This document shows, piece by piece, positions 4,335 through 58,635 of a stretch of 64,000 nt of DNA (positions within the stretch are counted from its first letter, which is position 1; each line of letters starts with the position of its first letter). The notes beneath the pieces were generated by a model. It made no database searches. It saw only the letters and a program-made list of their open reading frames with translations, and had not been told where the DNA came from. The translations under genes were made by a program, and so were the position numbers. This DNA is from Pseudomonadota bacterium (GTDB taxonomy: Bacteria > Desulfobacterota > Desulfobacteria > Desulfobacterales > C00003106), in assembly GCA_043818915.1 (NCBI GenBank), contig JBDRFJ010000242.1, positions 1,810-65,809 of the forward strand. Direction: 5' to 3'.

Positions 4335-4452
4335 ATCCACAGATTACGCAGATTTCAAAAAGACCCCAAAACATTGAAATGAAAATTTGCGAAAAGCCGA
4401 CTTCGCCATAGTAGCTTTGGCTACGACGGCTGAATCTGTGAAATCTGCGGAT
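4335..4452. repeat. 9-mer periodic inverted-arm element (GCAGATTAC type) with nested REP-like palindrome
   Basis: ATCCACAGATTACGCAGATTTC ... AATCTGTGAAATCTGCGGAT; same arms at 25665-25805. Confidence 0.8.
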
Positions 4453-4542
4453 ATAATTTCCTACACAAGAAAAAATTTGTGCTGTGTGCTGCAAGCATAA
4501 TCTTATTGTATCATTTTAAAACAAGAGAGCAACTCTCTTATT

Positions 4543-4610
4543 CCTAAGTTGAGCGATTTTTGAGGAAGAGATGTGCCAATATCTCTTCCTCAAAAATCGC
4601 TTAATTTAGG
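4543..4610. repeat. 30-bp near-perfect hairpin (MITE remnant or terminator)
   Basis: CCTAAGTTGAGCGATTTTTGAGGAAGAGAT-8nt-ATCTCTTCCTCAAAAATCGCTTAATTTAGG with 2 mismatches. Confidence 0.85.
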
Positions 4611-4621
4611 TTATTATCTTT

Positions 4622-5872
4622 TTAGCCCCTCTTGCGCTCCTTGGTCTTCTTTGAACTCTTCAGCCACGCTACAGGATCTGTTGGTTTGCCATGATGGCGA
4701 ATTTCAAAATACAGTCCGGTGCCTTTAAGCGATCCGGTGTCCCCGACTACGCCAATGGTTTCGCCGCCTTTGACACGGTCTCCCACTTTCTTGGAAAGAC
4801 TCAAAGCATGAGCCGACAGGGTATAATACCCCTCGCCGTGATCAATAATAATGATATTGCCGTATCCCTTGAACCACCCTGCGTATATTACCGTACCGTC
4901 GTAAACCGCGCCAATGGCCGTTCCTTCCTTTGCCTTGATGTCGATCCCGTTTTGAAAATGATATATATTAAATGTCGGGTGCTTGTATTTGCCAAAAGAA
5001 GTTACGATGGAACCTTCTACCGGTAGTGGGAGGCGCCCCTTTTGAGCTGAAAATAAGGGCATCCTCTTTGTTGTTTTTTTGGTTTCTTTTTTTGCGTCTT
5101 TTTCAAGTTGTTTTATAGTATCATCGAGTCGGCGGGAAACTTCTATCAGCTCCTCAAGCGCTGCATGGGCTGATTCCTTTTTGTTGTGAACATTGGCAAG
5201 AAGTTCAGTCCGTTTTGTTTTTTCGGCCGCAATTGTGCGCTGCTCTTTTAAGATTTTTACCTTAATTTTTTTAATGTCTTGATGCCGATTCTCAAGAGAT
5301 TCCGTCAATGAACTTAATTCTTCTTTCTTTTTCTGGAAATCATTCCATACTTGAACATCATAAGACAAAATGGTTTCAATTGCGTGATAACGCTGCCAAA
5401 GTTCAGCAAAAGATTGCGCGGAAAACAGAATGGGGACGATCCCCAATCGGCCAAGTTTGTAGTAAGCAATCAGTCGTTTTGCCGTATGTTCCTCTAAAAT
5501 TTCAAGTTCTTTTGTGTGCAGGGCTCTATCTTGTTCGATCTTTGTCATCTGTGTTTGGATATACGATTCTTCGGAAAGAAGGTTTTTGAGGCGACGCTTC
5601 GCCTGTTCAATAGTTCGGTCAAGACTGTCCAGTTCTGAGAGTAACTTCCGTTCCTGTCGAGTAAAGGTTTTTATTTCGTCCTTTTTTTTTCTTATCTTTT
5701 GTTGAACACTTTTTGCTTTGCCACGTTTTTTTTGTATATTTTCACTTAGGTCATAATGTTCACTTTCTGGGAAGGCAGGTTGCACATACGACAAGCTTGC
5801 CAACAGACACATAAGAAAGCTCAGGATAAGACTTTTAAAAATTTTTTTAATGATAAACAACTTCCTAACCAT
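4622..5872 (-). CDS. envC: Murein hydrolase activator, coiled-coil plus M23 domain
   Basis: Signal peptide, long coiled coil, GIDI/GYGNIIIIDHG/LYFEIR; downstream of ftsX. Confidence 0.85.
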   Translation of the reverse strand: MVRKLFIIKKIFKSLILSFLMCLLASLSYVQPAFPESEHYDLSENIQKKRGKAKSVQQKIRKKKDEIKTFTRQERKLLSELDSLDRTIEQAKRRLKNLLSEESYIQTQMTKIEQDRALHTKELEILEEHTAKRLIAYYKLGRLGIVPILFSAQSFAELWQRYHAIETILSYDVQVWNDFQKKKEELSSLTESLENRHQDIKKIKVKILKEQRTIAAEKTKRTELLANVHNKKESAHAALEELIEVSRRLDDTIKQLEKDAKKETKKTTKRMPLFSAQKGRLPLPVEGSIVTSFGKYKHPTFNIYHFQNGIDIKAKEGTAIGAVYDGTVIYAGWFKGYGNIIIIDHGEGYYTLSAHALSLSKKVGDRVKGGETIGVVGDTGSLKGTGLYFEIRHHGKPTDPVAWLKSSKKTKERKRG

Positions 5873-6714
5873 CCTGCTAACATTCCCAAAACAATAACCA
5901 ATGCCATCATGTCCACAGATAAGAACCTAACACGAAAATATGCAAGAGATAAATCCGTAATACTTACCCTGGAAACAAAACCCGAAAAGAGCATGTACAA
6001 AATGCCCAGGCTGATCAATCCTCCCAGCAGCCCGTGCAGAAGGCCTTGTATATAAAAAGGTATCTTTATAAAAAGTTTTGTCGCCCCTACCAGCTGCATA
6101 ATTTCCAGCTCTTCCCGTTTGGCATAAAGCGTTAATTTAATAGTATTTGAAATGATAAAAATTGCGATAAACAGCAAAAGGCCTCCTATTATAAAACCCA
6201 CCATTTTAAACAGATTAAGGAAGGCTAAGAATCGACCCAACCACGCCTGTCCATACTGAGCATCAGTAATGTCTTTTAGTTCTTTAATCTGGTTAACCAG
6301 TCCTTCGATAGCTTTTTGATCATAAAAAAATGGATTCAGGGTAACTTCGAACGAGGCCGGGAGAGGGTTTTCCCGCAATCCATCCAGCACCCCTACCTGG
6401 TGCTCCAACTGAGCTCTCAAACGGAGAAGCGCTTCATCCGGAGGCACAAAGATTACTTCGTTTACTCCGTAGAAACCCTTGAGCCGTTTCTGCACAAGAT
6501 CTATCCGTTCCTGATCCGCCCCTCTTGTTAAGTAGGCTACAATCCGTATATCTTCTTGCCATGAACCGACCAGATTATTCACATTTGCAAAAATAATGAT
6601 AAAAGTGGCCAGTATCAATAATACCAGCCCAATTGTCCCCACTGTTATCACATGCAAAAATTTATTGTTCCTGATATCTTGCAGCGCTCTTCTGAAAAAA
6701 ATCGATATATGCAA
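5821..6714 (-). CDS. ftsX: Cell division permease FtsX
   Basis: NPLPASFEV, ISNTIKLT..AKREELEIMQLVGAT..FIKIPF. Confidence 0.93.
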   Translation of the reverse strand: MHISIFFRRALQDIRNNKFLHVITVGTIGLVLLILATFIIIFANVNNLVGSWQEDIRIVAYLTRGADQERIDLVQKRLKGFYGVNEVIFVPPDEALLRLRAQLEHQVGVLDGLRENPLPASFEVTLNPFFYDQKAIEGLVNQIKELKDITDAQYGQAWLGRFLAFLNLFKMVGFIIGGLLLFIAIFIISNTIKLTLYAKREELEIMQLVGATKLFIKIPFYIQGLLHGLLGGLISLGILYMLFSGFVSRVSITDLSLAYFRVRFLSVDMMALVIVLGMLAGWLGSCLSLKKFLKVLS

Positions 6715-6816
6715 CTCCCAATATCTCCACGCATGTCAACGTCATTGGCTTAAATCCGAAACGAAGATCAACGTCACTCTGTACCTTCAAATTACAATTC
6801 CTAAATTCAGAATATT

Positions 6817-56696: not shown

Positions 56697-57022
56697 ATGA
56701 TCTTCTTAGTAAGTGCTTGGCAATAAGTTATCAACCAATTACTTGCCTGACAAAAAAATGTCGCGTTTTGCGAAGGCCTTACACTGTTGTTTTGTATGTT
56801 AAAACCTACAATAACTCGGTTGTGGGGAAACCGTAAACCGCTGAGAAAAATGTTTTTATATTACAATAAGTAGCATGTCAGCCATACAGATTTTTGTCTG
56901 TATGGTAAATACTACATTAGCGCTGCTGCAGAACCAACACCTGTTCCTTGTTGCAACAAGGCCCGCGCGCAAGGCTGGCCAGATATGAAGATGTCTTAAT
57001 AAGGAACTAATTTATAAGAAAA

Positions 57023-57037
57023 GCAAAAAAAATGCCA
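57023..57037 (-). promoter_or_regulatory. Candidate sigma54 promoter
   Basis: Minus strand TGGCATTTTTTTTGC, GG-N10-GC spacing. Confidence 0.5.
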
Positions 57038-57160
57038 ATATGCGGAACAATCAAATGAGACAATCACCAGCCCACGAATGAAGGGATGGACCACATCCCT
57101 CATTCGAAACCTTTATCCATTCGTAGACTCGGTGAGTTAAGGAACTGAACAATATGGGGC

Positions 57161-58429
57161 TTATGTTCTTTTTTGAAAACGGGCCGACTCTCCTAATTCT
57201 TCTTCAATCCTAATAAGCTGGTTGTACTTGGCAATACGATCAGTTCTTGAGGCTGAACCGGTCTTGATCTGTCCCGCATTTACCGCAACAGCAAGGTCCG
57301 ATATAAAGGTGTCTTCGGTTTCTCCGGACCGGTGTGAGATGACCGTATTGTATCCGGCCTCTTTTGCCATGGTTATGGTGTCAAGTGTTTCCGTTACAGT
57401 GCCGATCTGGTTTAGTTTTATTAATATGGCATTTCCGATCCCCTTTTCAATCCCTTTTTTGAATATTGCCGGATTGGTAACAAAGATGTCATCGCCTACA
57501 ATCTGAATCTTTTCGCTGAGACGTTCTGTCATAATTGCCCACCCTTTCCAATCCTGTTCGGCCAAACCATCCTCTATGGAGATAATCGGATAATCGGAAA
57601 CAAGCTTTTCATAGTAATCAATCATAGCTTTTGAGTTCATCTTCTTGGCCTTTTCAGCCTTCAGGATATATTCTCCCTTGTTGTAAAATTCGCTGGCAGC
57701 CGAATCCAAGGCAAGAGAGATATCTTTGCCCGGCTTATAGCCTGCTTCCTTAATGGCGGTCATAATAAATCGGAGAGCTTCTTCGTTGGAGGAAAGATTG
57801 GGAGCAAAGCCTCCTTCATCTCCCACTGCCACGTTGTGTCCCGATTTTTTCAAGACCGCCTTGAGCTTGTGAAAGGTCTCTACACCCATGCGAAGGGCCT
57901 CACTGAAAGATGCCGCCCCAACAGGAACGATCATAAATTCCTGGATATCGAGGTTGTTTGCTGCATGCGCACCACCGTTAATAATGTTCATCATTGGGAT
58001 TGGAAGAAGGCGCGCATTAATTCCCCCGATATAACGGTATAGCGGCAGCCCTAAGGCTTCGGCAGCAGCCCTTGTGGCAGCCATCGAGACTCCAAGAATA
58101 GCGTTAGCTCCGAGCTTGGCTTTATTTGAAGTGCCATCCAAAGAGATGAGAAAATTATCCAGGGTAACCTGGTCAGCAGCATCTAATCCGATTATTTTAG
58201 GCATAATAATTTCGTTAATATTTTCTACTGCTTTGGCAACACCCTTACCCCCATAACGTTTAAGACGCTTGTCTCGGAGTTCCAGCGCCTCTCTCGTTCC
58301 GGTTGAAGCGCCGGAAGGAACAGCGGCCCGCCCTAATGCCCCGGAACTGAGCAAAATATCGACCTCCACAGTTGGATTTCCTCTGGAATCGAGAACTTCC
58401 CTTCCCCTCACGTCGATAATCTCTGTCAT
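57161..58429 (-). CDS. eno: Enolase
   Basis: [39 protein letters not shown] 58429 with GGGAGG RBS. Confidence 0.97.
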
Positions 58430-58519
58430 ACGTCCCTCCCTTTCTTGTGATATGGGTTCATGTGATAATGTTTTAAATTGATAACACAGGGATTTCTTTT
58501 GCCTGTTGAGATAGTACAC

Positions 58520-58635
58520 AGTTATGAGTTGCGAGTTGCGAGTTACGGGTCAAAAAATGGAAGTAATGAATGAGGTAGCAAAACAAATGAATTTACTTAG
58601 TACGTAGCGACAGCATGAGGACAAAACCCGTAACT
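58520..58635 (+). repeat. Heptamer inverted-arm element (GTTGCGA type) with decayed gene 3' stub
   Basis: AGTTATGAGTTGCGAGTTGCGAGTTACGGGT ... AACCCGTAACT; 58574-58633 reads GSKTNEFT*YVATA*GQNP*. Confidence 0.75.

Follow-up and report, generated by a model that had tools for sequence, protein, structure and literature searches.

Gene cassettes in inverted tandem-repeat arms as a probable source of hairpins between operon genes in a Desulfobacterales-like genome

A 64,000-nucleotide stretch of DNA (the window; positions 1,810 to 65,809 of contig JBDRFJ010000242.1, GenBank assembly GCA_043818915.1) from a Desulfobacterales-like sediment bacterium carries, at ten of its gene junctions, elements with inverted arms built from short tandem units. 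The reading that we favor, with a probability of roughly 0.6, is a composite one, namely, that selfish gene cassettes of the type of the 23S rRNA intervening sequence (IVS) colonize the spacers of operons and spawn short hairpins resembling MITEs (miniature inverted-repeat transposable elements). The origin of the elements from cassettes, and their turnover, are to be placed much higher than the composite on the strength of sequence comparisons; the roles proposed for RNase III and for the encoded proteins are drawn by analogy and are to be placed much lower.

A master is defined here as a full cassette, with an intact gene between the arms; the window elements are its relatives that lack an open reading frame (ORF) or carry only a stub of one. 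The genes belong to two families. The first encodes the four-helix-bundle "23S rRNA IVS protein" (4HB; TIGR02436/PF05635, also called 23S_rRNA_IVP or S23p), and the second encodes the PD-(D/E)XK nuclease family GxxExxY (TIGR04256/PF13366, PDDEXK_3). The genome holding the window, G000, is a metagenome-assembled genome (MAG) of 3.83 Mb in 248 contigs with 45.9% G+C; the best relatives of its HypF protein come from Desulfobacterales/Thermodesulfobacteriota MAGs and are no more than 80% identical over the full length (84% for one partial match). G000 was compared with three congeners that are independent assemblies (G001 to G003), and the window was compared with DNA contigs from four public metagenome runs (X1, X2, X3, and X5). 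Contigs are given as C-numbers, and window elements are named by position (Table 1).

Results

Genes of two families lie directly between inverted tandem-unit arms

In G000, eight matches to TIGR02436 exceeded the curated cut-off, seven of them full length (that on C202 without an obvious upstream start codon) and one truncated; seven matches to TIGR04256 exceeded the cut-off, and there was one fragment. Scores were well above the thresholds, as illustrated by the 4HB protein of C130 (97.5 bits against TIGR02436, cut-off 24; 101.9 bits against PF05635, cut-off 33.8) and the GxxExxY protein of C219 (152.7 bits against TIGR04256, cut-off 35; 149.9 bits against PF13366, cut-off 22). The 4HB example was also matched to the solved structure 2gsc (XCC0516) with a phmmer E value of 4.6e-12 over residues 7 to 119. 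The arms of the masters in G000 reach right to the start and stop codons. When inverted repeats were scored at a threshold of at least 28, under one scheme for all loci, such arms flanked six of six testable 4HB genes in G000 (the seventh, 57 nt from a contig end, was untestable) and five of seven GxxExxY genes, or 11 of 13 together. In related genomes, where nearly all loci are each genome's best match, the counts were 24 of 29 for 4HB and 20 of 25 for complete GxxExxY genes (44/54 together), giving 55 of 67 loci overall. The reversed control gave none, and random G000 ORFs of 90 to 200 amino acids (aa) gave 3/300. An earlier reading of the window made from sequence only had staked its proposal on intact genes of these two families being flanked by such arms in this or related genomes, and these counts bear it out.

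The period of the arms followed the gene family. At 4HB loci with arms, the period was 7 nt in 19 cases, 8 in 4, 9 in 2, 6 in 1, and unclear in 4; at GxxExxY loci with arms, a period of 7 nt did not occur, 7 cases having 9 nt and 3 cases 8 nt, while 15 were unclear. Arms of the GCAGATTAC 9-mer accompany GxxExxY genes, and the 7-mer families and one 8-mer family accompany 4HB genes. Proteins of the 4HB family with different arms were 19 to 39% identical, and two with identical GGTTCAC arms were 91% identical. Both gene families were common at the level of the order, with 4HB present in 32 and GxxExxY in 26 of 41 sampled genomes (G000 included). Moreover, outside the phylum, plasmids of Nostoc, Calothrix, and Riemerella carry 4HB genes surrounded by heptamer inverted arms, which makes three of the four records inspected (of 12 matches).

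Several loci showed other arrangements. On a plasmid of Pseudanabaena galeata (NZ_CP112875.1, 46268-46627), a 4HB gene lies between cas6 and cas4; the arrays beside it are direct rather than inverted, with about 16 units of CTAAAAG on the upstream side and about 11 of CCAAAAG on the downstream side. A GxxExxY gene of G000 (C94:1119-1460) lies between direct repeats of about 85 nt and not between inverted arms. Two consecutive junctions around a 59-aa gene at G033:C13:316200-317450 are filled, one by a GxxExxY cassette and the other by a 4HB cassette; neighboring cassettes of both types recur in G009, G030, and G040 and on contigs C130 and C219 of G000.

In five close pairs drawn from both families, dN/dS was 0.03 to 0.12, and the encoded proteins are thus under purifying selection. 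Residues G18, G20, E23, Y26, D62, E72, and K74 were invariant in 18 of 18 aligned GxxExxY sequences. An AlphaFold model of the GxxExxY protein (pLDDT 95.1) matched the Cas4 protein SSO0001 (Z 8.6), the nuclease domain of BpuSI (Z 8.5), Hjc (Z 7.3), and lambda-type exonucleases, all of the PD-(D/E)XK fold; these matches were generic, with middling Z scores of at most 8.6, and the fold search pointed to no specific subfamily. With its D...E-x-K residues conserved, the GxxExxY protein is predicted to be a PD-(D/E)XK nuclease.

A four-helix-bundle fold is also found in the Avd protein of diversity-generating retroelements (DGRs), a possible relative of TIGR02436, and G000 contains two reverse transcriptase genes. 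The cassettes might on these grounds be held to move through RNA, the excised stem-loop being copied by a reverse transcriptase with the 4HB protein as an Avd-like helper. We consider this very improbable, since neither reverse transcriptase ORF (both about 451 aa) is next to a cassette, no reverse transcriptase was found in the cassettes, and GxxExxY cassettes show the same layout without a 4HB gene.

Gene-less elements of the window are linked to full cassettes by continuous sequence or by their arms

The link between the window elements and the masters was clearest at three sites. Element 28210 matched the 670-bp 4HB master at C219:8017-8686 over 62 nt at 94% identity and over a further 31 nt at 90%, and element 43502 matched the same master at both ends; in each case, the arms and the adjoining linker were aligned. 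Element 32030 matched the master at C130:27665-28100 over 55 nt at 91% identity, a segment that includes the start codon and first ten codons of the gene. At other sites, the arms provided the link. Elements 25665 and 4335 have arms in common with two GxxExxY masters on C130; GTTACGA/GTTGCGT arms, the family of 12469, 45796, and 58520, enclose a 4HB gene at G002:C125; and 8-mers of the GTCAAGTG type, the family of 14712, enclose a broken 4HB gene at G002:C139 and form hairpins at other junctions of G001 and G002. ATTGATT/GATTGAT arms surrounding 4HB genes at G002:C146 and G003:C164 are similar, not identical, to the ATTGAAT arms of window element 24946. Every arm family of the window therefore has a master or a near relative within the genus, the link being one of nucleotide continuity for 28210, 43502, and 32030 and of arms in common for the remaining sites. 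The sequence-only reading had held that the arm sequences were unrelated to one another; instead, a small number of families accounts for them, and these recur. Its comparison of the stubs with 4HB and GxxExxY proteins was upheld at these three sites by nucleotide continuity with 4HB masters; at the protein level, the similarity mostly did not exceed that of shuffled sequence.

The CGAAATC family was the most informative as to how gene-less forms arise. G000 contains one 670-bp master of this family with its 4HB gene, together with 89 blastn loci; nhmmer gave 177 matches, of which 113 were nearly complete. When 17 copies were aligned, the longer forms (about 180 to 195 bp) were seen to retain the identical first 45 nt or so and last 15 nt or so of the ORF; a single deletion event therefore gave rise to a product that then spread. 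The family is short, noncoding, and multicopy, with inverted ends and an origin by internal deletion of a coding parent, the features by which a MITE is recognized; the GGTTCAC family may be cited in the same connection. The outer end GTAACTACTYAG of element 32030 was considered as a terminus common to several families and rejected, since only GGTTCAC elements have it (17 sites in forward and 14 in reverse orientation, forming 4 pairs).

The same junctions are full, collapsed, differently occupied, or empty in related genomes

Comparison of the window junctions with those of the congeners and of metagenome contigs yielded all the kinds of allele for which the sequence-only reading had proposed to look. 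At hypB/hypF (25665), the two genes overlap with no insert in two more distant relatives and are also insert-free in G001; G003 has the window's element with 2/2 units per arm compared to 3/3 in G000, and contigs of X2, X3, and X5 skip 238 nt and carry 53 other letters instead. At the pdxA junction (43502), the 234-bp element with its stub in G000 corresponds to identical arms around a shorter interior in G002 and to 15 nt in G001; contigs of X1 and X2 skip 356 nt there, with 14 letters between. The hypF/hypD junction is occupied by a CGAAATC element in G000, by a CGCAAAG-armed element in G001, and by an 8-mer hairpin in G002, the last beside 24 nt left over from the right end of a CGAAATC element. 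In a relative (contig DAOVEU010000324.1; HypF 84% identical), a TTGATTG/ATCAACA-armed element with a second hairpin nested in it lies at that junction (contig positions 1340 to 1650), and nested TTTCAGG and GAACACT arrays follow further on (3000 to 3342).

At hypC/hypB (24946), G001 has about 150 nt between the arms that enclose 10 nt in the window. At 58520, G002 and G003 have 6 nt where G000 has 243 nt, and G001 has a fuller copy with five left and three right units and an interior longer by 38 nt. At 12469, G003 retains only GTTACGAGTT, and in G002 there is GTTGCGAGTT together with another insert, of 145 nt. Other hairpins occupy the 4335 junction in G001 and G003. At 45796, the G001 alignment is unbroken across the element, and G002 has 323 nt compared to 184 nt, including a CGAAATC element.

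Full cassettes were likewise found to differ in location. The junction upstream of a gene whose product begins MSKQLIVVESPTKV (which we take to be topA) holds a GGTTCAC 4HB cassette in G000, a GTTACGA 4HB cassette in G002 (23% identical at the protein level), and a GxxExxY cassette in G003, within flanks whose identity, judged by eye, is about 90% or higher as far as the upstream stop codon. Copies of the GGTTCAC cassette (88.6% nucleotide identity) occupy separate loci in G000 and G002. Where G001 has a 484-nt 4HB cassette, the site in G000 is uninterrupted and no bases are duplicated; where G003 has a 425-nt cassette, G000 has a mini-palindrome, ATTGACAATTG, that reads like one unit from each arm. 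Together, these comparisons show that junctions in the congeners are full, collapsed, differently occupied, or empty and that elements have been gained, lost, and spread. That cassettes land between operon genes and then lose their ORF, as first supposed, is in keeping with these alleles; local decay is not the whole account, as the ORF-less forms have multiplied after losing the gene.

The same data bear on the view that the elements are host regulatory hairpins (mRNA stabilizers, terminators, or processing sites) that grew in place by slippage, with genes using the stems for expression and nothing being mobile. The steps in unit number between strains (3/3 versus 2/2; 5/3 versus 3/1) do resemble slippage, the elements are located between cistrons, and the available text of PMC4692102 reports paired heptamers in Xanthomonas to be stable and unlinked to mobile elements. 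However, more than 100 dispersed copies have a common nonrepeat interior, and the longer aligned copies have common deletion breakpoints; one cassette lies at different loci in congeners, there are clean filled and empty pairs, and three unrelated cassettes occupy one junction. Growth in place is thus quite unlikely.

Paired arms are frequent in the genome and lie mostly between co-directional genes

Paired inverted arms occur far beyond chance in G000. Tandem Repeats Finder (TRF) gave 4,498 arrays. Unit-based pairing of arrays within 1.5 kb gave 177 reverse-complement pairs, compared with 88 direct, 44 reversed, and 38 complemented pairs as controls. By local alignment, a reverse-complement partner within 1.2 kb and with a score of at least 28 was found for 247 of 1,688 arrays (period 7 to 11 or 14), and the reversed, noncomplemented control gave 2 of 1,688. 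The gaps between paired arms ranged from 0 to more than 500 nt and were mostly below 200 nt; some long-gap pairs are two neighboring, separate elements around an ordinary gene. The count of paired arrays is an underestimate, because the TRF-seeded scan retrieves just four of the ten window sites.

Placement was determined with rough ORF-based gene calls, by which the genome is 84% coding. Among 222 short elements, 179 were intergenic, 32 partly overlapped a call, and 11 lay within a called ORF; the genes on the two sides of an intergenic element were co-directional in 133 cases, convergent in 20, and divergent in 21. For 147 elements, the upstream stop was a median of 40 nt away and the next called start a median of 59 nt away. 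Copies of the CGAAATC family were co-oriented with their co-directional neighbors in 42 cases and opposite in 15. Neither the window nor 20 4HB loci from related genomes gave any Rfam match at the gathering score, rRNA included.

Ten elements in the window and their folding

All ten sites named in the sequence-only reading were confirmed by inspection (Table 1), and most were also recovered independently by inverted-repeat and tandem-repeat (TRF) tools. Neighboring genes include hypC, hypB, hypF, hypD, hypE, pdxA, eno, and a gene for a major facilitator superfamily (MFS) transporter. The graded series proposed earlier is present among them, from elements with a gene stub (43502 and 32030), through elements with filler (28210, 25665, 12469, 4335, and 58520), to abutting arms (45796, 24946, and 14712). 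Element 58520 lies inside an inserted block of about 243 nt (about 58470-58713), in which outer remnants of other arm types are also present. By eye, 25665 had seemed to contain a C-terminal GxxExxY remnant and 58520 to have 4HB-like ends; both readings were without statistical support when tblastn scores were compared with shuffles.

Table 1. Elements with inverted tandem-unit arms in the window and z-scores of their RNA folds relative to 100 shuffles
Position	Strand	Arms and interior	Context or remark	RNA fold z
4335..4452		GCAGATTAC-type 9-mer inverted arms 4335-4356 / 4432-4452, 75-nt filler	ORF-less, GxxExxY-cassette arm family	-4.9
12470..12581 (12469 site)	+	GTTGCGA/GTTACGA heptamer arms, filler of about 80 nt	Antisense to flanking minus-strand genes	-2.3 (13-bp stem)
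14712..14752		8-mer units TAGTCAAG/GTCGAGTG, arms abutting	Weak hairpin scar, 7-bp stem	-2.8
24946..24990	+	ATTGAAT/ATTGACT arms, 10-nt loop	Immediately 3' of hypC stop codon (hypC/hypB)	-6.3
25665..25805	+	GCAGATTAC 9-mer arms, 3 units per side, filler of about 85 nt	Between hypB and hypF	-5.6
28210..28362	+	CGAAATC family, arms of about 60 nt, filler	ORF-less; between hypF and hypD	-6.8
32030..32196	+	GGTTCAC family, outer ends GTAACTACTYAG	Contains first 10 codons (MKIEHFEDIE) of 4HB gene	-6.4
43502..43735	-	CGAAATC family with N-terminal 4HB stub MTKI*NPKQY..DLEDRT	Between 651-aa gene and pdxA	-8.1
45796..45877	+	GTTGCGT/GTTACGA heptamer hairpin, stem of about 20 bp, 10-nt loop		-7.7
58526..58634 (58520 site)	+	GTTGCGA family, left units three, right unit one		+0.1

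Seven of the ten sites formed strong stems when folded as RNA. The stem of 12469 was moderate, that of 14712 was weak, and 58520 did not fold because its right arm retains one unit only. Folds of four sites with DNA parameters agreed with the RNA folds (z of -10.2 for 45796, -6.8 for 24946, and -5.0 and -3.2 for the others); that of 32030 covered the left part only (32030-32170), which pairs with an inner right end. Covariation was sought with RNAalifold in 38 short CGAAATC copies, and 2 of the 18 pairs predicted showed double changes; this result was discarded because the register of the repeats makes the alignment unreliable.

Further repeats and spacers were noted in and around the window. 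A near-palindrome of 165 bp at 10916-11080, nonperiodic and composed of two 80-nt arms that are 74% complementary, has more than 70 copies at 93 to 99% identity in G001 to G003, many of them at contig ends, and therefore breaks assemblies. At 47250-47385, there is a perfect, nonperiodic 38-nt inverted repeat with a 60-nt loop, with at least 13 copies at 87 to 92% identity in the congeners; a partial copy lies near 14810-14835, where G003 has 159 extra nt. A hairpin at 4543-4610 (30-nt arms, 93% complementary), downstream of the minus-strand gene 4622-5872, is absent from that spacer in G001. At 40637-40686, contigs of X2 and X5 carry 160 other letters in place of 48, and a related strain may hold an element at this junction, which is bare in G000. 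The hypD and hypE genes overlap in the window (29527-29530) and are separated by about 4.1 kb in G001 (C272:9138-13239).

Discussion

A model for the cassettes and the points that weigh against it

In the model that we propose, a full cassette consists of one gene of about 120 aa placed directly between two inverted arms of short tandem units, with each arm family paired with its own protein lineage. Comparison shows that cassettes enter gene junctions close to the stop codon on the upstream side, in most cases where the two genes are co-directional; that the ORF is lost by internal deletion and the ORF-less forms multiply like MITEs or like the hairpin-forming doublets of repetitive extragenic palindromic (REP) sequences (REPINs); and that stems shrink to short hairpins, single units, or nothing, the junctions being reused by different families. 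The long stem (20 to 90 bp) may be cut by RNase III, as in the ORF-bearing 23S rRNA IVS; a stem between cistrons that is a substrate of this enzyme, whose gene (rnc) is present in G000, would explain why inserts are tolerated in operons. The specificity of each arm family for one protein lineage, together with a period that follows the protein family, suggests that the protein recognizes its own arms. The nuclease would then cut DNA hairpins or cruciforms, the ring-forming 4HB protein (a pentamer like XCC0516) would read successive repeat units, and the master of a family might move its ORF-less copies in trans.

Several observations weigh against this account. Direct instead of inverted repeats flank the C94 and Pseudanabaena copies, and direct repeats scoring at least 28 were also seen at 9 of 25 GxxExxY loci of the related genomes. 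Few remnants of genes were recovered from element interiors: HMMs built from the 7 + 7 proteins of G000 gave, at 12 bits or more in six-frame translations of 182 interiors, 8 matches for 4HB and 7 for GxxExxY, which were mostly masters (shuffles, 0/910). In a tblastn comparison of the ten window elements with 14 masters, 32030 and 43502 (21.9 bits each) were marginally above the best of 50 shuffles (20.4 and 20.0, respectively), and the other eight elements were no better than the shuffles. The search of interiors advised by the sequence-only reading therefore supported it marginally at two window sites and otherwise returned little beyond masters. No target-site duplication above control was detected in 13 copies reaching both ends of the model, the boundaries of which are fuzzy. 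The three GTTGCGA elements of the window are all antisense to the flanking genes, so co-orientation is no rule. Mismatches in the arms showed no clear sense-strand G-U bias (64 versus 46 for 4HB and 46 versus 50 for GxxExxY), the asymmetry between G-U and A-C not being significant; these counts therefore do not demonstrate selection on RNA, and the stems could be important as DNA. A search for RNA runs containing window positions 24700-32300 listed none. Finally, neither encoded protein matched a known transposase in family-model searches of the masters, we know of no catalytic site in the four-helix bundle, and G000 has ten Y1_Tnp matches, several of them proteins of about 320 aa, that could act in trans.

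This last point leads to an explanation in which the elements are REP- or REPIN-like hairpins moved in trans by host Y1 transposases of the IS200 type, similar to REP-associated tyrosine transposases (RAYTs), with the 4HB and GxxExxY genes as passengers. Like REPINs as described in the available part of PMC3116915, the elements are intergenic hairpins in which no target duplication was seen, and new copies are often located in or beside older ones. The Y1-domain proteins on C210, C188, C228, C141, C1, C147, and C62 are about 320 to 375 aa long where complete; five of them start with MARPLRIEY or a close variant, and two start differently. Whereas RAYTs are flanked by REP sequences, however, periodic arms flank none of the ten Y1 genes; instead, they track the 4HB and GxxExxY genes at 55 of 67 loci in many genomes and in three of four inspected plasmid records from two other phyla. 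Moreover, every arm family is tied to a protein lineage of its own, and the two protein families differ in the period of their units. Mobilization by Y1 transposases is accordingly judged improbable, if less so than the other alternatives.

The quality of the assembly must also be weighed, since G000 is a MAG with an estimated contamination of 5%. With 248 contigs, and with repeats that often break contigs, an artefact of assembly or binning could be suspected. The chance of this is negligible, because elements occur inside long contigs of G001 to G003, on contigs of the four public metagenome runs, and on finished plasmids of cultured Nostoc, Calothrix, and Riemerella.

Beyond the composite reading lies a broader one, which we put forward tentatively and regard as rather unlikely on balance. 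The cassettes may represent an unrecognized and widespread class of mobile element in which a tiny gene, for either a ring-forming four-helix-bundle protein or a minimal PD-(D/E)XK nuclease, mobilizes itself and gene-less copies by reading tandem-repeat arms. The ORF-bearing 23S rRNA IVS, the hairpins formed by short tandemly repeated repetitive (STRR) sequences of cyanobacteria, and the paired heptamers of Xanthomonas would then be products of this one class. If each protein subunit read one repeat unit, it would be understandable that the period goes with the protein family, and the "IVS protein" family would gain its first function.

Significance and comparison with known systems

G000 presents a gene-in-stem unit outside rRNA, a second gene family in the same wrapper, and purifying selection on the masters. 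Together with hundreds of gene-less derivatives and with filled, collapsed, and empty alleles in one genus, these features turn scattered curiosities into one testable class of element, and an arm together with its cognate protein provides concrete substrates for biochemistry. The elements reshape gene ends and spacers, as read by eye at hypB/hypF and pdxA, where they supply stop and start codons, and they also break assemblies. The model would explain the presence of 4HB genes in operons such as cas loci, where 23S_rRNA_IVP genes have been read as CRISPR-associated by Zhang and co-authors (PMC3936711, available part). Insertions in rRNA genes of the candidate phyla radiation sometimes carry an S23p-type ORF, as the accessible text of PMC11270868 reports. 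In a literature search whose reach ended at subscription journals and supplements, no paper was found in which genes of the TIGR02436 or GxxExxY families are connected with inverted arms of periodic units or with derivatives resembling MITEs.

Each of several known systems resembles the elements in part. The STRR sequences of heterocystous cyanobacteria are also intergenic tandem heptamers; to our knowledge they are restricted to cyanobacteria, and the elements described here are from a Desulfobacterales-like MAG instead. The Avd protein of DGRs, a pentamer that binds nucleic acid and the reverse transcriptase, has the same general fold as the TIGR02436 proteins; unlike in DGRs, no reverse transcriptase, template, or variable repeat is found beside the cassettes. 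Like MITEs, the elements are short and noncoding, have terminal inverted repeats, and were internally deleted and amplified after the deletion. Unlike MITEs, they have a parent without a recognized transposase, and no target-site duplication was seen in what was a weak test (13 copies plus one clean filled/empty pair). The REPIN-RAYT system, according to the available part of PMC3116915, similarly comprises inverted doublets that form intergenic hairpins in many copies, each family being tied to a single-copy flanked gene; here, however, the associated genes are not Y1 transposases, and the arms are tandem 7- to 9-mers rather than one palindrome of about 20 bp. The paired GGGAATC repeats of Xanthomonas are intergenic heptamers with 70 to 75 convergent pairs able to form stem-loops; in contrast to the present elements, they have no association with mobile elements and no enclosed gene in the account that PMC4692102 gives in its available text.

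The closest relative is the ORF-bearing 23S rRNA IVS of Leptospira, Coxiella, Xanthomonas, and others, and the suggestion that the system is uncharacterized must be qualified to that extent. In the available part of PMC4990558, the S23p ORF occupies the loop between inverted ends that pair into a stem and contain tandem heptamers, a layout found also in the masters. In Coxiella, the GACAGAT heptamers vary in number between strains and RNase III cuts at the first repeat; the family member XCC0516 is a pentameric ring, and the authors repeat an older idea that the IVS ORF served mobility (PMC4990558, same part). Variable unit number, decay or deletion of the ORF, and a sporadic distribution suggesting transfer are likewise features that the accessible text of PMC4990558 reports for the IVS and that the present elements share. 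The elements differ from the IVS in their location, lying in spacers between protein genes rather than in a 23S rRNA helix; in having a second, unrelated family, the PD-(D/E)XK nuclease, in the same layout; and in their more than 100 ORF-less copies per genome.

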